From: a virus
Lineage: Duplodnaviria; Caudoviricetes
Direction: 5' to 3' (one strand)
IMG/VR virus record: IMGVR_UViG_3300001199_000286
Span: 1 to 53,305 of that record
Length of the DNA stretch: 53,305 nt
The notes under the pieces are model-generated. The model worked only from the letters and a program-made list of their open reading frames with translations, was not told the origin of the DNA and ran no database searches. Shown here one piece after another: positions 1,597 through 48,282 of this stretch. A program made the position numbers and the translations under genes. Each line of letters opens with the position of its first letter. Positions within the stretch are counted from its first letter, which is position 1.

Positions 1597-4500
1597 ATGA
1601 ATAATACTTTGTCTTATTTGACTGCCAGAGCAGCACAAGTACCAGAAAATGAAGATGCCAGAATAACCAGACTTGCCGCTACAGGTGGAGATAGATTTGG
1701 CGTTATTTTTAATGACAATGAATCCCAAGAACTAATTTGGACCATCCCTCAAATCCCAACAGCCTATCAAGGAACTGGCACATTATATTTAGACATCCAT
1801 TGTGCAATGGACGAAGCCACTTCTGGGACTGTAGGACTTAATGCTTATTTAGAAGCTGGTGATGTTAATATATCTTCAACTTCTTTTGATTCGGTCAACA
1901 CCAATGGGGATACGGTTGCGGGAACTGCTGGGGATATGTTTGTCATCACAATTACGTTAACGAACAAAGATTTCATGGCGGCAGGAGATACCGTTCGTAT
2001 TAAATTAAATCGAAATTTAACGTCTTATACAGCTACTGGTGATTTATATGTTTTGGGTGGTTTATTATATGAAACCGTCACTTCTGTTACTTTAGGTGGA
2101 GCTTTGGTAGTCACTAGCCTTACATCTAGTGTAAGTACGGGAACAGCCCCTTTCACGGTAAGCTCAACCACTGTTGTCTCTAATTTAAATGTCGATAAAC
2201 TTGATGGTTATGATGCAACTGATTTCGTTCTATCTGGTGATGAAGATACAAATGCTGTTATTTTGGTTCCAACTTCTAGTTCAAGAAACATTATTCAACC
2301 AAGTGCTGCTGGATATATTCCCTTAACAATTAAGGGATATACTTCACAAACAGCAAATTTAACTGAATGGCAAGACAGTAGTGGAACAGCTTTATCCTCT
2401 GTCTCAGCAGCAGGACTTATTAGTGGATTATCTTTTACTAGCACACAAACTACAGGAACCGCTCCTTTGGTTGTAGCATCTACAACCGTGGTAACAAATT
2501 TAAATGCTGATACTGTTGATGGATTAGATGCTACTGCATTTCCTATATTACTTCCAACTTCTAGTTCAAGAAACGTTATTCAACCAAGTGCTGCTGGATA
2601 TATTCCCTTAACAATTAAGGGATATACGTCCCAAACAGCAAATTTAACTGAGTGGCAAGACAGCAATGCCTATAAGCAACTTGCCATTTCAAGTGCTGGT
2701 TTCTTGAGTTTCTACGAAAATTCAGGAACCAACAGAATTGGTCAATTTGTTCCAAATAGTAGCGATGGACAACTAGCTTATGTAATTGAAAATGCTAGCT
2801 ATCCAGGTTTTGCAATTAAAGGAACAACAAGCCAAACTGGAAATCTTCAAGAATGGCAAGATAGCAGTGAAACGGTATTATCATCAGTTTCATCTAGTGG
2901 CATTATTTCAGCCCCCAGATTTATATCAACAACAAGCACAGGAACAGCCCCATTTACTATAAGTTCAACTACTGTTGTAACCAATTTAAATGCAGACACT
3001 GTTGATGGGTTAGAGGCTACTGCCTTTCCTATTTTAGCTCCTGCTTCTAGTGTTAGAAACGTAATTCAACCAACGGCAGCAACTTATATTCCTTTAACAA
3101 TTAAGGGGTATACTTCACAATCAGCAAACTTAACTGAGTGGCAAAACTCTAGTGGAACTGTTGTAACAAGCGTAAATTCTGCTGGTAGTTTACATATACT
3201 TCCAGCAGCTTCAACCAGTGTAGGAACACCTGCGTTCAAAATTGCCGAAACAGGCGTAAGTTCTTTAATCAGATATTATGGCGGTTTATTTGAATTTAAT
3301 GGAGCAACTGCTTATTTTGCTGATGCTGGCGGGCTTAATAGAATACAAATTAGCTCTTCTATAAGCGGAATGAAACTAGACGTAAATCACAAAATTTTCT
3401 TTGGGAACACTTATCTTTCGGAAGACTTCAATATTGCTCTAACAAAAGGCAATCATGGACTTTTTTCTATTACCGATTATGCTTCAAAAAAAGGTGCTAT
3501 TGTTTGTGGATCATTTGGCGGAAGCACACCCGCTCAAACAATTGTCGGAGCAGCGAATACAAATAAATTAATCACTAACGTAGCACTTACATCAAATGTC
3601 GCAACAATTACAACATCGGGTCCACATACGTTCCAAACAGGCCAAAAGGTTGTTATCAGCAGCCTTACAAATAGTGGATTAAATGGCACTTATATAATTA
3701 CCAATATTCCATCCACAACTACTTTTAAATATGATAAAGTAGCAAGCAATATTACTTCTGTTGCCGATAGTGGATATGCAACTCAAACCCAAACTGCTGA
3801 TTTAACACAGTGGAAGAGTGGTGGAAGTGGGGCAAAATTTGTGGCCGCAAGTTCTCAATCGCTCTCTTATGACACGACTTCACTTAATGCTGATGCAGAT
3901 ATGACAATCAGCATGTGGATCAATCCAATAGCAGCCACTACAGGCGACTTATTCTTTGTTGGAACAACAAACGTATTTGATGGATTTAGAGTTTACTATG
4001 ATTCTACTAATAATAGAATTAATGTCAATCGAACTACCACCACAAACTATGCCGTTTCAGCAACATCAAGCATCCCATCTGGATGTTGGACTCACGTTGT
4101 TGTTACCTACATTGCGTCTTCTGGTCTTACTCAAGTCTACATCAATGGAGTTGCTTCTGGAACCTCTGGAAGTAATGTTGTCAGTGTAGGAACCAAAGGA
4201 TACAAACTAGGATATTCGGGTTCTGCTTATTATAGCGGAGGCATGGATGCTGTTGGAATTTGGAATAAAGCCCTAACAACTTCCGATATTACTTCATTAT
4301 TTTCTTTGTGTAAAAGCTATGCGGATTTAAATTCATCTGAAACCACTTCGTTGCACGCATGGTATGACTTTGCAACAAGCGGAACTATTCTGACCGATTC
4401 GAGCGGGAACAACAGAACATTGACCAACACTGGGGTCGTTACTGCTGACGAAGGCATTCCAATCACAACAACTAAAATAAGTTCATCAGGTAGATTAGTT

Positions 4501-9680: not shown

Positions 9681-9812
9681 TTAGCTGTTTTTATGCTTTT
9701 TTTTCTTTTTTGGAAATTTTCTGACAATTGGACCAGAAAAAACCATCATTGGTACATTTGCCACACAATTAGTGCTAGTTGCGGTTTCTTTTAAGAACTG
9801 TTTGAATGTCAT
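9681..9812 (-). CDS. Small basic protein with capsid-targeting-like N-terminus
   Basis: MTFKQFLKETATST...; ATG at 9812 overlaps stop of 9809..10240 (ATGA). Confidence 0.6.
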   Translation of the reverse strand: MTFKQFLKETATSTNCVANVPMMVFSGPIVRKFPKKKKKHKNS

Positions 9813-10240
9813 TGTAAACCTCCTGGTGAGCCCCCAGAAGCGTCTGGAGGTGGCGAGGGCATTCCAGCATCCATTCCGCCTGCTGCCCCTTGTTGGGCCG
9901 CTAATGCGGGCGTCCAACCTACTGTTAAAAGCTGAATTACTTCCTTTCTACTTAAACGATATTCTTTATCATCTGGTGAACCCATATAACGAGTTTTACC
10001 CATATAAGCTTTTTGTCCTGGCATATTCTTTAATTTAATGATAGCACTACCATCAGGAAACGTCTGTTTAATCTCCCAAGCAGCGGTTTTATAATTAACG
10101 CCACCTAAATTAAAATGGGAATTAACCCAAGGTTCTTTTTTAAGGACTTTATTCCTGTTTTTAGCGTCAATGCCCAATTCATCATAAAGACCATTAAAAT
10201 AGTCCGCTTCTTCGATAAATTGTTTGAAAGTGTAACTCAT
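9809..10240 (-). CDS. Hypothetical protein, candidate internal virion protein
   Basis: MSYTFKQFIEE N-terminus; low-complexity Gly/Pro tail. Confidence 0.7.
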   Translation of the reverse strand: MSYTFKQFIEEADYFNGLYDELGIDAKNRNKVLKKEPWVNSHFNLGGVNYKTAAWEIKQTFPDGSAIIKLKNMPGQKAYMGKTRYMGSPDDKEYRLSRKEVIQLLTVGWTPALAAQQGAAGGMDAGMPSPPPDASGGSPGGLQ

Positions 10241-10257
10241 TAAAATATATATTAATC

Positions 10258-10929
10258 ATGCTACCATTCGCCAATAAAGATAAACAAAAATTTCAATGTT
10301 TTGTTTGTGGTAAAGAGTTCGTCAGTTTTGACACCTACAAGGAACATATCACAGAAAACCATGAATTAGGCAGAGAATACGTCGTTTGCCCTGTAGATTA
10401 CTGTCAAGCCCCTGTTCGGGATTTAAAATTACATGTCAAGGTGAAACACCCAAATATTAAAGAATTACCACCAGGGCTACAATATAGGGCTGTTATTTGG
10501 AAGGACCAATCCAAAAGAAAAGATGGAAAACTCAAGACTCAAAAGGTTAAATTTAGAAGTGGCAGTATTTTCTCTAATAAAAATCAAAAAGAAGTCAAAT
10601 ATCGCAGTGGATTAGAATGCCACGTTTATGAATGTTTAGAAGAAATCAAAGAAGTTCTTGCTTATGATGCCGAACCATTTCCAGTAGAATATTTTTATGA
10701 AGGAGTAAAACACAATTATCTCCCAGACTTAAGCCTTTTGCTCTCTGGAGGAAGGGTTCAAATCTGGGAGATAAAACCATCAGACCAAACTTCATTACCT
10801 GTTAATTTGGCTAAATGGGCGGCTTGTGATGCATTTTGTCAATCAAGAGGATGGAAATTTCAAGTCATTACCGAAAAAGGTCTAGAGAAACTTAGAATAT
10901 GCAGAAAAACTCAAACATTAGATTTTTGA
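10258..10929 (+). CDS. C2H2 zinc-finger + TnsA_N/T4 gp4-like PD-(D/E)xK endonuclease
   Basis: CFVC...H...H and CPVDYC...H...H; RSGLE, EPFPVEY, YLPDL, EIKP, K-W-A-A...GWKFQVITE. Confidence 0.75.
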   Translation: MLPFANKDKQKFQCFVCGKEFVSFDTYKEHITENHELGREYVVCPVDYCQAPVRDLKLHVKVKHPNIKELPPGLQYRAVIWKDQSKRKDGKLKTQKVKFRSGSIFSNKNQKEVKYRSGLECHVYECLEEIKEVLAYDAEPFPVEYFYEGVKHNYLPDLSLLLSGGRVQIWEIKPSDQTSLPVNLAKWAACDAFCQSRGWKFQVITEKGLEKLRICRKTQTLDF

Positions 10930-19206: not shown

Positions 19207-19273
19207 TGTAGTATCCTCTAAAAATAGGTAATTGCATTCTAACATAATATATAGATTAGAAAGAAAACGAACC

Positions 19274-20578
19274 ATGACAACATTTACAGAATTTTTAGAA
19301 AATCACGAACCATTCGATTCTATGCATGCAGATATTCCTCTACCAAAAGAGGTTTATTTGTTAAGCAAAATTTTTGCTAAACACAACAAAACTTTGTTTG
19401 CTGTTGGTGGAGCTATTCGTGATTTTCTCTACCACAAATATCACGATCCAAAAGGGAAATATAATCCCAAAGATGTGGATCTAGCCACCGATGCTCAACC
19501 ACAAGACATCAATAAAATTCTTACTTCCCAAGAGGCTCAACTAAACGGAATCAAAGTCTTTCCTAAAGGGGAAGCCTTTGGTGTTATTTCAGCCATCGTT
19601 AATGGACAAGAATATGAAATTGCTACTTTTAGAGAAGAATGGTATGACCCAGAAAAGGGAGATGGAAGAAGACCAGACCAAGTTACCTTCTCTACTCCTG
19701 GTAAAGATGCTCAACGTAGAGATTTAACCATGAATGCTCTTTTTTATGATGTAGATAAAAAAGAGATCAGAGACTACAACGTTGACGAAGCGGGACGAGG
19801 CTTAGGCTTACAAGACATTAGAAGCCTTGTAGCTAGACCTGTAGGCAATGCCAAAGAACGTTTTAGAGAAGATAAACTAAGAATCCCCAGATTAATTAGA
19901 TTCTTTTCTAAATACAATCCAGGGGAAATTCTAGACCATTTAGATCAACAAACTATTGCAGCTATTAGGGAATTCAAAGACCTTGCTGGAGTTTCTCCAG
20001 AAAGAATTGCTGCTGAATTTCTGGCAGGGTTGGCCAAATGCCACAATACGATAAACTATCTGAAAAATTATACCGTTTTAGACCTTTATCCTGCAGTGTT
20101 CCCTGGAATGCGAGTAGACACCCAAGATATCGACCGAATTGGAAATATTAAAAATCCCAAGGCTATTTTAGCTTGGATTTTGAAAAGCAATGGGGACTCT
20201 CGTCAAATTAAAAGTCATTTAAATGGCTTGAAATACCCTAGCGATATTTTCGACAGGGTTGAATTTCTTGTCAGATTGTTCAAGTTTGAACCACAAAAAA
20301 TTGCTCTTTATCTCAAACAAAGAGATGTTCCTAAACAATTAAAAGACCCAGCTATGCAATCAATTGCTATGAGTGGGCTACAACAAGATGTTAAGGACTT
20401 TGCCCAAATTGCTGGGATTAGTGACCGTATGAACCATTTCATGGGATACCAATCCAATGTCAATTCTCAAGATTATATGCACTTAAAAGGCAAAGAAATC
20501 TCAGATGCTATTGGCAATGCAGAACATGATGCCTACCAAAAATCTTGGGACCAATTTAATCGTTCCAAGGGACAATAG
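19274..20578 (+). CDS. cca: Class II tRNA nucleotidyltransferase (CCA-adding enzyme)
   Basis: VGGAIRD, DVDLAT, EIATFREE, flexible loop DGRRPD, RRDLTMNAL, EDKLR templating motif, SPERI. Start reassigned to MTTFTEFLE. Confidence 0.9.
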   Translation: MTTFTEFLENHEPFDSMHADIPLPKEVYLLSKIFAKHNKTLFAVGGAIRDFLYHKYHDPKGKYNPKDVDLATDAQPQDINKILTSQEAQLNGIKVFPKGEAFGVISAIVNGQEYEIATFREEWYDPEKGDGRRPDQVTFSTPGKDAQRRDLTMNALFYDVDKKEIRDYNVDEAGRGLGLQDIRSLVARPVGNAKERFREDKLRIPRLIRFFSKYNPGEILDHLDQQTIAAIREFKDLAGVSPERIAAEFLAGLAKCHNTINYLKNYTVLDLYPAVFPGMRVDTQDIDRIGNIKNPKAILAWILKSNGDSRQIKSHLNGLKYPSDIFDRVEFLVRLFKFEPQKIALYLKQRDVPKQLKDPAMQSIAMSGLQQDVKDFAQIAGISDRMNHFMGYQSNVNSQDYMHLKGKEISDAIGNAEHDAYQKSWDQFNRSKGQ

Positions 20579-21239
20579 TAGCCCAAACCTTTTCATTTAA
20601 TTCACGAGCTTTGGCCTTATCGGCATCGGTTGCTAGCTCTATTTGAGAATTAACAATTTGAGCCATTAATTCATTACGAGTAATATGGTCTTTGGGGCAA
20701 CACATAGCCTTATCCCCCCAAAATTCCACAGACTTACGTAAAAGGGCTACAAACTCAGAGTCAGTCATTCCAGTAGATGTACCACCACTTAATTGTAAAT
20801 GGTTGGCAATTAATGCTCCCATTGGAATTGGAGATTCTTCCTCAGTTGGATTAGCATTAACCGAGATTACTTCCCATTCAGCATCACAACTTTGTTCATT
20901 ATTCTCTGCTAGAACGTCGTGACGATACAATACAACGTCTACGCTTTTAGCTGGCATCTTTTGCCTAGTTGCAGCATAAACGCTTTTACGGGGCTTCTCG
21001 CCCGCTTTACGGGCTCTATAACAGCCCTCTAAAGCATCGCCTTCTTTTAATTGAACAATACTCGTGAAAAATCGTTCAGGAGGAATAGGAATCAATACAA
21101 CTCCGTCCTTATATCCTGCTTTTTTGTTGTCAAAATTCTGGTTCAATAAAACCAAAAATTCTTCGTCAGAATGTTCCCAATAAGAAAACTCCGAATCTTT
21201 AGTTTGACGACGTACAAAATTACTAATAGCAATCTTCAT
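20556..21239 (-). CDS. DUF3228-like protein
   Basis: FVRRQ, GYKDGVVLIP, R..GE.P, VDVVLY, WEVISVN, E.P.PM...AN...GG pattern recalled for DUF3228. Confidence 0.65.
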   Translation of the reverse strand: MKIAISNFVRRQTKDSEFSYWEHSDEEFLVLLNQNFDNKKAGYKDGVVLIPIPPERFFTSIVQLKEGDALEGCYRARKAGEKPRKSVYAATRQKMPAKSVDVVLYRHDVLAENNEQSCDAEWEVISVNANPTEEESPIPMGALIANHLQLSGGTSTGMTDSEFVALLRKSVEFWGDKAMCCPKDHITRNELMAQIVNSQIELATDADKAKARELNEKVWATIVPWND

Positions 21240-22276: not shown

Positions 22277-22431
22277 AAATTACTCTGAATTGTTTACGAA
22301 ATGCAGTTTTTTTGCCTTCTTTTCTAGAAAAGGAAAACCCCTTCACAAAATTATAGCAAAAAACTCCAAAAAAAAGAACAAGCAGCACAAGAAGAAAAAA
22401 GTATATGATTTGCATATTTCACCTTATTCTT

Positions 22432-22459
22432 ATTGTACTGCTTGTTCTTTGAAAGTCAA
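22432..22459 (-). promoter_or_regulatory. Sigma70-like promoter overlapping one arm of an inverted repeat
   Basis: TTGACT-N16-TACAAT; second extended -10 TGCTATAAT at 22350-22358. Confidence 0.55.
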
Positions 22460-22465
22460 TTAGAT

Positions 22466-23086
22466 TTAGACGGCTTGTCCAGATTGGCCCATTCCAGGTT
22501 GTGGTTGTCCCATACCAGCACCGATTTGGTGTCCTTTTTGTTGATTAGATTGGAAATCTTGGCTTACTTGTTGATAAAGTGGTTGTAGCGTTTGAGCTAA
22601 GAAATTATCAGGATAACCCATAGTCTTCAATTGCTTTTGCAAAGCTTGAATAGCATTAGAAGCTTGCTTGAGAGTTTCTGTATTAGCTCCTTGCTTGTAA
22701 CGGGCACCAATGTCATTGCCCACCGCTTGAACACCTTGTTTTACAGAGTTAGCAGCATTTCCAACGGCTGTTTTAGCAGCATTGAATTTATTTCCTAGCC
22801 AATTACCAGCAGTGTTTGCGGCATTGCCTACAGCATTTCCAGCATCTCTACCAAGGCTTCCAGCAACGTTACCAACGCCAGCAGCACCACGAGCTAGGTT
22901 GCTAATGCCGCCTAACATGTTTCTAAAACCAAGCTCATTCAATAAAGCTTCGTCGGTAAGGCTGTTTTGTTCAGCTAAACCAACAGTAACTTCACAAAAA
23001 TATTCAATATCTACTTCGGCAGCAAGTAGCAATTGTGCGTAAGATTCACATTTTTTATAATCCAAAAACTCATTAAAATTATTCAT
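22466..23086 (-). CDS. Gly/Ala/Asn-rich candidate internal virion protein
   Basis: MNNFNEFLD N-terminus, acidic leader ending LLNE, AGNA repeats; ACTATATA at 23112-23119. Confidence 0.7.
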   Translation of the reverse strand: MNNFNEFLDYKKCESYAQLLLAAEVDIEYFCEVTVGLAEQNSLTDEALLNELGFRNMLGGISNLARGAAGVGNVAGSLGRDAGNAVGNAANTAGNWLGNKFNAAKTAVGNAANSVKQGVQAVGNDIGARYKQGANTETLKQASNAIQALQKQLKTMGYPDNFLAQTLQPLYQQVSQDFQSNQQKGHQIGAGMGQPQPGMGQSGQAV

Positions 23087-23123
23087 ATTGTCTCCAATTG
23101 TTGGTTAATTTTATATAGTTTTC

Positions 23124-26356: not shown

Positions 26357-27674
26357 GTTCAACAAAATCTAGGGAAATCTAGGTCTTGTCATTTAAGCTA
26401 TCAACCATCTAACCTTCACCGTTAGACTTTCAAAGGATTGATAACTACTGGCATTGCGGCAATGCTCCTATCCCCTATTCCTGCGAACTCAGGGATTACT
26501 TTTCGTCCAATGTTCAAACTACCATTCACATCAGCATTCATGGCAAAGCCGTTGCTGACATACAAACCACGATACTTACGCTTACCACTAAACTCAGGTT
26601 CAGTGTCACCGTAAACAGGCAATGGATCACGGTCATAAAAACTCGCCTTGCTGGTGTAGGACTCTTCCGTGAAGATTACCTCAATGCCAGCAATGTTTGC
26701 TTTGTACTTGATCTTTTCCAACAACAAATATGTCGGAATTGAACAAAATGCCTGATTAGTTTTCTTGCCCAAATTGATATTCTGCTTCCATCCGTCGTTC
26801 TTGCCGATGATGATTTTGCCAATGTTATTCTTCAAACATAAATCAACGATCAACTTGCTCGTATGATGGAAATAGTTTTCAATTCTCCAATAACGCTTAC
26901 GCAATCGTGTCTTACAAGGACGCTTGTTGTACCATTGGTTTATGCTCTTGAGGATGCGACCATTGACCAATATAGGACGGTTTTGGTCGTAAGTTATCGC
27001 AGCTAAAGTATTCAAACCAATGTCTATTGTGCAAACTTTGTCCTTGTCAAACTTTACTTTCTTCTTCTCTTCTTTCGTTTCATACTGGACTTCAATTACA
27101 AAGCCAAAGGTCTTGGGAGTGATGACCACTTGTTTATAGTCAGCCCTGAACCTCACCGAGAAACAATTATTCGTAGCGGTCAGATTAGGCAAGGTTTCGT
27201 GGTATTGCCCACCTTTGATTGTCTCGTTGTAGAAAATGACTTGTGCTAGTTTTTCCTTGTAGTTTGGTGCTTTGGGGCAACGCACAAACTTGCTATGGTC
27301 TTTGCCATAGGCGGTCAGTGCCTTGCGGTAATTACTCCAATCGGTTAGGCACTTGCGGATCGTTTGTTTTGCGGTTTTGGTGTTGTGGAGTTGCTTGAAG
27401 CAGTCAAGGTTTTTGGTTTCGTTGGTAAGGAGAGTAATGTCAGGAAGTCGTTGTTTGGTGAACCACGCTTTACGCATGAGGAAATTGCAGCGATTGTATA
27501 ATTCTCTGCTTGTGGAGCAGAGTCTTACAAGTTCTGGGTTTCCTCTTGTGTAGTGTCGTTCAACCAATAGCATACCTTATATAAGGGTATGCCCTTTCAT
27601 TTTTGAAATAAATCTTTGAATTTTGTCAAAATAATTATCTAGGTTCTCCTAGATTTACTTAGATTTTATGACAA
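26357..27674 (-). mobile_element. Non-autonomous IS607-like element carrying tnpB only
   Basis: Subterminal inverted motifs AAAATCTAAGTAAATCTAGG (27648-27667) and AAAATCTAGGGAAATCTAGG (26364-26383), 18/20, each 7 nt from an RG dinucleotide; 10-nt-spaced CTAG-type repeats; no tnpA. Confidence 0.7.
26422..27573 (-). CDS. tnpB: RNA-guided endonuclease TnpB
   Basis: LYN, RuvC-I IDIGLN, IIIGKN, EESYTSK, RuvC-III NADVNGSLNI. Confidence 0.93.
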   Translation of the reverse strand: MLLVERHYTRGNPELVRLCSTSRELYNRCNFLMRKAWFTKQRLPDITLLTNETKNLDCFKQLHNTKTAKQTIRKCLTDWSNYRKALTAYGKDHSKFVRCPKAPNYKEKLAQVIFYNETIKGGQYHETLPNLTATNNCFSVRFRADYKQVVITPKTFGFVIEVQYETKEEKKKVKFDKDKVCTIDIGLNTLAAITYDQNRPILVNGRILKSINQWYNKRPCKTRLRKRYWRIENYFHHTSKLIVDLCLKNNIGKIIIGKNDGWKQNINLGKKTNQAFCSIPTYLLLEKIKYKANIAGIEVIFTEESYTSKASFYDRDPLPVYGDTEPEFSGKRKYRGLYVSNGFAMNADVNGSLNIGRKVIPEFAGIGDRSIAAMPVVINPLKV

Positions 27675-47442: not shown

Positions 47443-48231
47443 TTAATACGTTCTAAATGCACTTATAATAGCTTCTGTAATTTCTTTCATGCTTTGTGTG
47501 GGAGCAAAATATTCATCCCACTCTGAAGGTTGAACTTCCCATTTATGTGTTTTCATAGGAGAAGTAATGTCATGACCCCAACAACGAATTAATCCAGTAT
47601 TTTTGTTAAATTGAAGTCTAATATTGAATTGTTCTACTCTGGCATGTCCTGGGGCTTCTACACCTGCTCCATTCAATTCAAAATAAATAAGGGCATAATT
47701 TTCATCTAATTCTTTGGTTCCCTTATAAATCATAATTTTGGGGGCTAAACGGCACGCTGCCGTGGCTAAATAAACTACTAATTTCTTAAATTCTGGATAA
47801 GTTGGTTTAGCAGTATCTAACATAACTCCATCAATGATTTCTAAAATTGAGTACATTTTATGGGCAATAGGAACTTCATTTGAATTTTTTGTGTCATGCT
47901 CATTGAGAGAAAGCACATGTTTACAAATACCTACCATTTCTCCTTCTAGGGTTCTTATTTTTTTTCTGGCAATAATTTTATAGGAACCCAAGGGGCTAAT
48001 ATCAATTTCCATGGCTCCTGGTTGTGTTTTTTCTCCATATTCCAGGCAAGTATGCCAAGCATGTTTTGGTGATTTTGTTCCTACTTTACCCAAGGAAAGT
48101 AATTCTTTAATAATCATCTCAGAATTAATTGGATCATAAGGAAGATTATCATCTTGAGTTTCTTCTTCTGGGGATTGACGGTCAAAACCATAATCTGCCC
48201 ATTCCAACCAATTTTTAAACGACTTTTTCAT
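47443..48231 (-). CDS. Hypothetical protein, candidate internal virion protein
   Basis: MKKSFKNWLE N-terminus; TATATA 5 nt upstream. Confidence 0.7.
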   Translation of the reverse strand: MKKSFKNWLEWADYGFDRQSPEEETQDDNLPYDPINSEMIIKELLSLGKVGTKSPKHAWHTCLEYGEKTQPGAMEIDISPLGSYKIIARKKIRTLEGEMVGICKHVLSLNEHDTKNSNEVPIAHKMYSILEIIDGVMLDTAKPTYPEFKKLVVYLATAACRLAPKIMIYKGTKELDENYALIYFELNGAGVEAPGHARVEQFNIRLQFNKNTGLIRCWGHDITSPMKTHKWEVQPSEWDEYFAPTQSMKEITEAIISAFRTY

Positions 48232-48282
48232 AAAATTATATATGGGTTTCTAATCTAAGATAGATAAAAATAAGGAAAAAAT

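Follow-up and report, generated by a model that had tools for sequence, protein, structure and literature searches.

The stretch of DNA analysed here, called the window, is the entire IMG/VR virus record IMGVR_UViG_3300001199_000286, a viral contig of 53,305 bases with a G+C content of 34%. The gene under study encodes a tRNA nucleotidyltransferase of the CCA-adding type, and the protein begins with a short additional leader that is a candidate capsid-targeting tag. The gene, its leader and the element upstream of it are located as follows.

19246..19253, + strand: octamer AATATATA, resembling a T4 late promoter, 20 nt before the enzyme ATG and containing TATATA at 19248-19253.
19274..19300, + strand: leader MTTFTEFLE, residues 1-9 of the enzyme, candidate capsid-targeting tag; outside the alignments to solved enzymes, conserved and T4-like.
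19274..20578, + strand: class II (CCA-adding type) tRNA nucleotidyltransferase gene, 434 aa, assigned from PF01743, phrog_2244, solved relatives and a structure model.

The open reading frame (ORF) of the enzyme runs uninterrupted from the ATG at 19274 to the stop codon TAG at 20576-20578 (+), and its product starts with MTTFTEFLE. The PolyA_pol head domain PF01743 was found at residues 42-168 (E 3.3e-23; 82.8 bits, cut-off 23). Nearly the whole length of the protein was matched by phrog_2244, 'tRNA nucleotidyltransferase' (E 6.8e-38). A previous description of this DNA, made from the letters alone and called the sequence-only reading below, had named the gene an intact class II nucleotidyltransferase, and these matches bear that out. 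The RNA-binding region PF12627 reached 17.6 bits, under its cut-off of 22. Among solved structures the best relative found by phmmer was the human mitochondrial CCA-adding enzyme TRNT1 (4x4w_A, E 6.5e-24), followed by the enzymes of Geobacillus and Planococcus, and the poly(A) polymerase structures of E. coli were weaker matches (E 1.6e-12).

An AlphaFold model of the enzyme made with 46 homologs had a pLDDT of 94.2 and a pTM of 0.88. When this model was compared with known structures by Foldseek, the ten top-ranked matches were all CCA-adding enzymes, with TM scores of 0.6-0.7 over the full length (4x4w_A: E 1.1e-16, TM 0.61/0.66), and the E. coli poly(A) polymerase structures followed at ranks 11-12. 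As modelled, the enzyme has the full head-neck-body-tail fold of the solved CCA-adding enzymes. Twelve residues are invariant in the 46 aligned homologs: G45, G46, R49 and D50; D67 and D69; R148, R149 and D150; and E199, D200 and R203. They fall in GGxxRD, DxD, RRD and EDxxR, which we take to be the class II catalytic and templating motifs. The protein is thus a complete and probably active class II tRNA nucleotidyltransferase of the CCA-adding type; addition of CCA, of part of CCA or of poly(A) is not readable from the sequence. The solved class II CCA-adding enzymes (human TRNT1 4X4W/8CBM, Geobacillus 1MIV and Planococcus 6QY6) share with it the head domain, the motifs and the overall fold, but the identity is 20-24% (Foldseek), and the window enzyme differs in having an N-terminal tag, in being without a C-terminal HD domain and in belonging to a virus-specific clade.

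Thousands of relatives of the enzyme are present in large protein collections. Those with 45-69% identity lie on contigs that are viral or unbinned and reach 673 kb; the relatives on viral contigs came from an alignment-based scan, and a scan for close relatives with the single protein gave none. In cellular genomes (185,579 species genomes) the best match, at 49%, was on a single 39.7-kb contig of a metagenome-assembled genome, and all others were at 36% or less. In the collection of cultured and deposited phages 166 records matched, all at less than 60% identity, and two of the 166 covered 80% of the query; the N-terminus was read in three of them (ME3, Kikimora and LR756502). As judged by these comparisons, the enzyme is a member of a virus-specific clade of uncultured T4-type phages with CheckV-scaled genomes of approximately 0.45-0.5 Mb. 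This scale is given by CheckV on the related records, of which one of 136.7 kb was rated 31% and one of 323 kb 64% of a complete genome. In a tree of 30 enzyme rows 8 of the 22 inner branches were open, the backbone among them, and the tree is compatible with one loss of the leader as well as with several; one row, L102 (127 aa), is truncated and has a very long branch.

The alignments with solved CCA-adding enzymes (phmmer) begin at residue 29 of the query or later, which places the leader outside them. In the AlphaFold model the leader forms a short helix at residues 4-10, and mean pLDDT is 66 for residues 1-10 against 93 for residues 11-20; the strand at residues 15-18 already belongs to the fold. 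The extra leader MTTFTEFLE noted in the sequence-only reading is accordingly present, and it is extra relative to the solved enzymes. For counting, a strict motif [FY][KRNTQES]x[FWY][LIMV][ED] was defined after inspection of the data. Of the 120 best homologs 71 had the strict motif and 16 a relaxed form, and 33 had neither, about six of the latter being leader-like by eye or having truncated start calls. The strict motif sits before a conserved ADIPLP box, usually 16 residues ahead of it. Where the upstream DNA was read, at 24 close viral loci, the leader was found in 18. Distant viral relatives, with 33-40% identity, mostly align only from about residue 20. The fold does not need the leader, since the leader is missing from some orthologs and lies outside the alignments to the solved enzymes. 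The residues of the leader are encoded by differing codons across loci of 33-58% G+C, and the same peptide kept with different codons over this range argues for selection on the protein and not on a DNA cassette. The sequence-only reading had staked its proposal on conservation of the leader among homologs, and these counts are mostly in its favour, the 33 homologs and the six loci without the leader standing on the other side.

In LR756502, a 642-kb uncultured phage (region L176 1380-4179), the enzyme homolog starts with the leader-like sequence MIITKYAKFLES. The two genes upstream of it share another N-terminus, MKHLKRFNEEL, which may be a second leader type. In the window, translation from the in-frame Met-17 (19322) would yield a protein that begins MHADIPLP and so resembles the leaderless orthologs; no Shine-Dalgarno sequence is evident before this codon. 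Tagged and untagged isoforms from one gene are therefore conceivable.

Nine longer relatives of 690-761 aa (P0127, P0129, P0136, P0139, P0143, P0154, P0162, P0181 and P0196) have an HD-like domain (PQxPxHHPEG) N-terminal of the nucleotidyltransferase and are either true fusions or read-through gene calls. The Pfam HD family scored 21.1 bits, just below its cut-off, in one of the two that were scanned. No HD-domain signature was found in the window with simple patterns in six frames. The N-termini of the fused proteins are again leader-like. The motif also occurs at the joint, which could then be cleavable; a structural helix or a remnant of gene fusion would explain it equally well.

The leader is not restricted to the enzyme. 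Within the first 16 residues the motif was present in 4 of the 70 ORFs of the window, against about 0.05 expected from its internal frequency of 1 in 15,129 positions. The three ORFs in addition to the enzyme are given below.

9809..10240, - strand: ORF of 143 aa starting MSYTFKQFIEE, with an unrelated body and the leader motif; octamer AATATATA at 10246-10253(-).
22466..23086, - strand: Gly/Asn/Ala-rich ORF of 206 aa starting MNNFNEFLDY, with the leader motif; octamer TATATAAA at 23110-23117(-).
47443..48231, - strand: ORF of 262 aa starting MKKSFKNWLEW, with the leader motif; octamer CATATATA at 48237-48244(-).

The ORFs at 9809-10240(-) and 47443-48231(-) had no match to a Pfam or PHROG family, and the one at 22466-23086(-) had weak PHROG matches only, to a tail protein (E 4.7e-4) and a virion structural protein (E 7.6e-4). 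The ORF at 9809-10240(-) belongs to a syntenic family, found in at least 12 related loci, in which the leader, as GF[KR]xF[LIV]E, precedes a conserved DYFxALGDE domain, with a variable acidic linker in between; this linker is missing from the window copy. Just downstream of the leader gene at 22466-23086, a hairpin-like sequence at 22373-22450(-) matched Rfam mir-15 with 29.2 bits (gathering threshold 57.3; E 0.0034), which is almost certainly a chance match or a terminator-type hairpin.

The 24 close viral loci had the N-terminal leader on 36 of 921 ORFs, with 1.2 expected; the 36 include 12 copies of the enzyme, and several of the contigs are near-duplicates. The controls were close to expectation, with 5 of 1307 ORFs in more distant viral loci (2.0 expected) and 3 of 2969 in cellular loci (2.1 expected). 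The exact ratios of enrichment are generous because the motif was defined after the data had been seen, but the contrast with the controls is still large. In a related record of 136.7 kb, which was fetched whole (G001, equal to L167-L173), the strict motif was present in 12 of 189 ORFs against 0.33 expected, and five further leader proteins were recognised by eye, giving a total of 17. These 17 proteins have no pairwise similarity past residue 14 (blastp, E≤1e-3). Thirteen of their genes, that of the enzyme included, lie back to back in an array at 85.5-98.3 kb (L171 5489-18278), with unrelated bodies and starts that are mostly MI[ST]FK.F[LI]EN. Apart from the enzyme, no leader protein of the window or G001 had a Pfam or PHROG match above the curated cut-off. 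By analogy, the array resembles an expanded version of the T4 internal-protein locus.

In phage T4, the aromatic residues at positions 4 and 7 of the capsid-targeting sequence (CTS) attach the cargo to the prohead's scaffolding core, and the enclosed cargo leaves with the DNA at infection. The N-termini in the T4 record are MKTYQEFIAE for IPII and IPIII, MKTFKEF for IPI and MELITELFDE for Alt. The window enzyme, MTTFTEFLEN, has Phe at both positions, 4 and 7, the second followed by Leu-8 and Glu-9, so that the targeting aromatics of T4 are matched. For IPIII the first ten residues were reported to be enough for head loading, and residues 4 and 7 are the main determinants of targeting and residues 8 and 10 those of processing, with an Asp at position 10 stopping processing and not targeting; foreign proteins up to the size of beta-galactosidase were packaged and delivered (PMC9026906). 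Two other papers agree on the role of the CTS in the parts available (PMC5694885 and PMC3012670). Judged from these sequences, the leader is a real, conserved and portable tag that resembles the T4 CTS.

Of 10 related records searched, 5 passed the curated cut-off for Peptidase_S77, the T4 gp21 protease family. All five belong to the six records that measure 136 kb or more (G005, of 168 kb, is without it), and none of the four fragments of 48-101 kb had it. G001 has a head module in T4-like order, with a portal gene, the protease gene, a gene for a 299-aa protein and the capsid protein gene. The 299-aa protein is scaffold-like, with 16% Glu and 16 [LI]xE sites, and the capsid protein shares 30% identity with T4 gp23 (E 2e-39). 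Two leader-type proteins are encoded inside this module, at 2357-3229(-) and 10342-10704(+). Among the four window leaders, the one of the ORF at 9809-10240 contains [LI]xE (I-E-E), the pattern of a gp21-type cleavage site, and is alone in this. Near the position at which T4 gp23 is cut, L-T-E-A, the capsid protein of G001 reads L-L-E-N, a hint that the specificity of the protease in the related phages may have shifted from [LI]-x-E.

The sequence-only reading had also pointed to TATATA 20 nt upstream, and the hexamer is found at 19248-19253, exactly 20 nt before the ATG. TATATA alone is no more than chance, as the octamer class HATATAWA ([ACT]ATATA[TA]A) occurs 29 times in the window against 36.5 ± 7.5 in shuffled sequences and is not enriched. 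Its position is not random: the octamer, a motif likewise defined after the data had been seen, lies within 45 nt upstream of all four leader genes vs 4 of the 63 other window genes. It occupies -13 to -6 from the ATG in the genes at 9809-10240(-) and 47443-48231(-), and -28 to -21 for the enzyme. The late promoter consensus of T4, TATAAATA, is at -13 to -6 from the transcription start (PMC1524935). With T4 spacing, a motif at -13 to -6 from the ATG would put the transcription start at or beside the start codon and give a leaderless mRNA. In G001 a different hexamer, TAAATA, precedes 17 genes with its first base at -10 or -11 from the ATG; almost all of these genes bear the leader, and the head genes have Shine-Dalgarno sequences instead. 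The placement of the octamer and of TAAATA may mark an AU-rich initiation element, or the mRNAs may be late and nearly leaderless. The G+C-rich relatives have not kept the octamer. No sigma-70-like site was found in the 66-nt gap upstream of the enzyme gene, and the regional count of such sites was 6, with 5.9 expected by chance. Early expression of the enzyme, which the sequence-only reading had taken as speaking against packaging, would not refute it, because T4 ipI-III have no TATAAATA within 70 nt upstream and yet their products are packaged (PMC9026906). In T4 alt, TATAAATA lies 28 nt before the ATG.

The genes around the enzyme place the window in its phage group. The scan of the window ORFs with Pfam and PHROG found ThyX, a dNMP kinase, a dCMP deaminase, a Ski2/Hjm-like helicase, a UvsX-like recombinase, a gp32-like single-strand-binding protein, a DnaB-like helicase, a DNA polymerase fragment and several DNA methyltransferases, which by their family matches are the replication and nucleotide metabolism block of a large T4-type phage. 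A tail-fibre-like protein of 1717 aa is also encoded in the window. The 'phages' collection held no near-identical DNA. The window and the close viral loci share the gene order ThyX, small acidic protein, HNH protein, dNMP kinase, helicase, three small ORFs, enzyme, UvsX and gp32, and the window therefore belongs to that phage group. Two further features were observed in the window. A 383-aa ORF at 26422-27573(-), within the replication block, matches the PHROG transposase family phrog_506 (E 6.4e-25), and the 3′ end of the enzyme gene shares 23 nt with a convergent DUF3228 gene at 20556-21239(-) (PF11539, E 1.7e-8).

Taken together, the T4-like tag, its portability and the head genes of the relatives suggest that a capsid-targeting tag puts the enzyme among packaged and injected cargo, and the capsid is the best-supported destination, to which we give a somewhat better than even chance. 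Several observations weigh against this interpretation. No [LI]xE site is present in residues 1-30 of the enzyme, where the leader ends F-L-E-N. At six of the 24 close loci (L089, L090, L091, L095, L096 and L102) the leader is absent and the protein starts just before the ADIPLP box; such leaderless orthologs occur in phages that use the leader on other proteins, and about a quarter of the 120 homologs are without the tag. The homologs of the cultured phages ME3 and Kikimora have no leader, and in seven of the nine fused proteins the motif is internal, at the joint. The enzyme gene lies in the conserved replication and nucleotide block and not in a head or hypervariable locus. The Pfam and PHROG scan found no head genes in the window, so that the protease of the window phage itself is unseen, and T4 gp55, the late sigma factor, was found in none of five partial related records by a single-sequence query of low power with no positive control. 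Finally, the three tRNA genes of related loci, tRNA-Lys(UUU) twice and tRNA-Arg(UCU) (L100 11781-12286 and L172 16771-16844; two of them directly after the enzyme gene in L100), are all without an encoded CCA, which argues for an ordinary cytoplasmic job for the enzyme. The sequence-only reading had itself argued from two tRNA-like elements in the window without a canonical CCA end; that argument fails because none was found there, ARAGORN reporting no tRNA or tmRNA and Rfam, at E≤1, four sub-threshold matches of which none was tRNA-like. Of its proposal that the enzyme may be packaged and injected there thus remain the conserved, portable, T4-CTS-like tag and the gp21-type protease of the relatives; the missing [LI]xE, the six leaderless orthologs and the lost tRNA-element argument tell against it.

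The same observations can be read as an ordinary cytoplasmic CCA-adding enzyme whose leader and octamer form a cassette for late transcription and for efficient, perhaps leaderless, translation with no role in targeting. We regard this as rather unlikely, though it accounts for the position of the gene in the replication block, for the tRNA genes without CCA and for the close orthologs that work without a leader. The joint occurrence of TAAATA and leader in G001 would also follow from it, as promoter-like motif and leader travel together there, and CCA-adding enzymes have already been called RNA-repair genes of jumbo phages (PMC7824862). What speaks against a bare expression cassette is that the peptide is kept with different codons from 33 to 58% G+C and the octamer is not kept in the G+C-rich relatives, that aromatic-x-x-aromatic-aliphatic-Glu is needless for translation, and that the motif matches the very residues that matter in T4 capsid targeting. 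The leader might instead be a real portable address with a destination other than the capsid, such as a hub protein, a membrane patch or a chaperone. Portability and conservation at the protein level do not alone tell where a tag leads, and the lack of a canonical gp21 cleavage site and the retention of the motif at internal joints of fused proteins would suit such an address. Among tags of this length and pattern, however, the T4 CTS alone has been characterised by experiment, genes for a T4-type protease, a scaffold-like protein and a capsid protein occur in the relatives, and the head module of G001 itself contains leader genes; another destination therefore appears improbable to us.

A further question is the reaction itself. 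The enzyme could be a poly(A) polymerase, or an A-adding or CC-adding relative that acts on other RNAs, and class II CCA-adding enzymes and poly(A) polymerases are not reliably separable by sequence. The E. coli poly(A) polymerase structures do match, in sequence and directly behind the ten best structural matches, and several sources label homologs 'poly(A) polymerase'. Yet all the top matches in both sequence and fold are CCA-adding enzymes, the templating E-D-x-x-R and R-R-D (motifs named as above) are invariant, and in one relative, L100, tRNA genes adjoin the enzyme gene, for which reasons we see a slim chance of a different activity.

If the leader is a capsid address, the enzyme would be made late in infection, and part of it would be loaded into proheads by means of the tag, which would possibly be trimmed after the conserved Glu-9. 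The enzyme would then be delivered into the next host with the DNA, where it would rebuild damaged or missing 3′-CCA ends of tRNA ahead of all phage gene expression. Targeting to the capsid, cleavage, injection, specificity for CCA and a benefit in counter-defence are the parts of this account that we infer. The whole picture would be that of a widespread clade of T4-type phages of approximately 0.5 Mb in which a T4-like tag on a mobile promoter-plus-leader cassette recruits dozens of unrelated genes into an injected arsenal. A recurrent part of the arsenal would be a repair kit for tRNA 3′ ends, made up of the CCA-adding enzyme and, in some lineages, a fusion to an HD-like phosphohydrolase with a tagged joint. 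Since it is made in advance, this kit would neutralise immunity directed at tRNA ends at the moment of DNA entry. In this complete form the proposal is tentative, a possible reading with the probability on the low side.

The nearest known system is the set of internal proteins of T4. IPI, IPII, IPIII and Alt likewise have a short N-terminal leader, with aromatics at 4 and 7, an aliphatic residue at 8 and a Glu following, on unrelated cargo; a gp21-family protease is common to T4 and, here, the related phages; and Alt is, as proposed for the window enzyme, an injected enzyme whose gene has a late promoter at a similar distance from the ATG. The differences are that the cargo here is a 50-kDa tRNA nucleotidyltransferase, that the Glu is at 9 after F-L vs the [LI]-x-E of T4, that the candidate cargo set is larger (17 in G001, which CheckV rates 31% complete), that the phages have genomes of approximately 0.45-0.5 Mb and that packaging is here a prediction. 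Giant phages of the phiKZ/SPN3US type package many injected proteins in the head, enzymes among them, and remove propeptides with a gp21-related protease; according to the available part of that paper these propeptides are mostly longer than 100 residues and have no common short motif, unlike the window tag of T4 length (PMC5694885).

Repair of tRNA by a phage in answer to host attack is represented by T4 PseT (polynucleotide kinase) and RNA ligase 1, which act against the anticodon nuclease PrrC, and the T4 record describes rnlA with 'repair of tRNA in restrictive prr hosts'. The T4 enzymes differ in being expressed after infection and in acting on the anticodon loop, where the window enzyme would be a pre-made, injected repair of the 3′ end. 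Iyer et al. (2021, PMC7824862) proposed that a CCA-adding enzyme of jumbo phages restores the 3′ ends of tRNA, and the available part of that paper mentions neither a targeting leader nor virion delivery. The papers on Atu_ph07 and XacN1, in the parts available, give the enzyme only as a tRNA-processing gene. In the literature searched, a packaged CCA-adding enzyme or a CTS on one was not found; such a detection could lie in supplementary tables of virion proteomes. Neither the enzyme family nor the principle of tagging, known from T4, is new; the combination of tag and enzyme, and the scale of the tagged set in giant phages, appear to be undescribed in that literature.

For uncultured giant phages the comparison yields a sequence rule: an N-terminal M-x-x-[FY]-x-x-[FW]-[LI]-E together with a gp21-type protease would list candidate injected proteins, most of which have no known function. 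If the tag is not a capsid address, the enzyme is an ordinary phage CCA-adding enzyme. Injected counter-defence by phages is known against DNA-targeting immunity, as with T4 IPI* against GmrSD, and other injected proteins, such as T4 Alt and the virion RNA polymerases of some phages, serve the takeover of the host. If the proposal is true, a pre-packaged RNA-repair enzyme would extend injected counter-defence to tRNA-targeting immunity, which acts on translation, whose machinery the phage requires from the first minute on.

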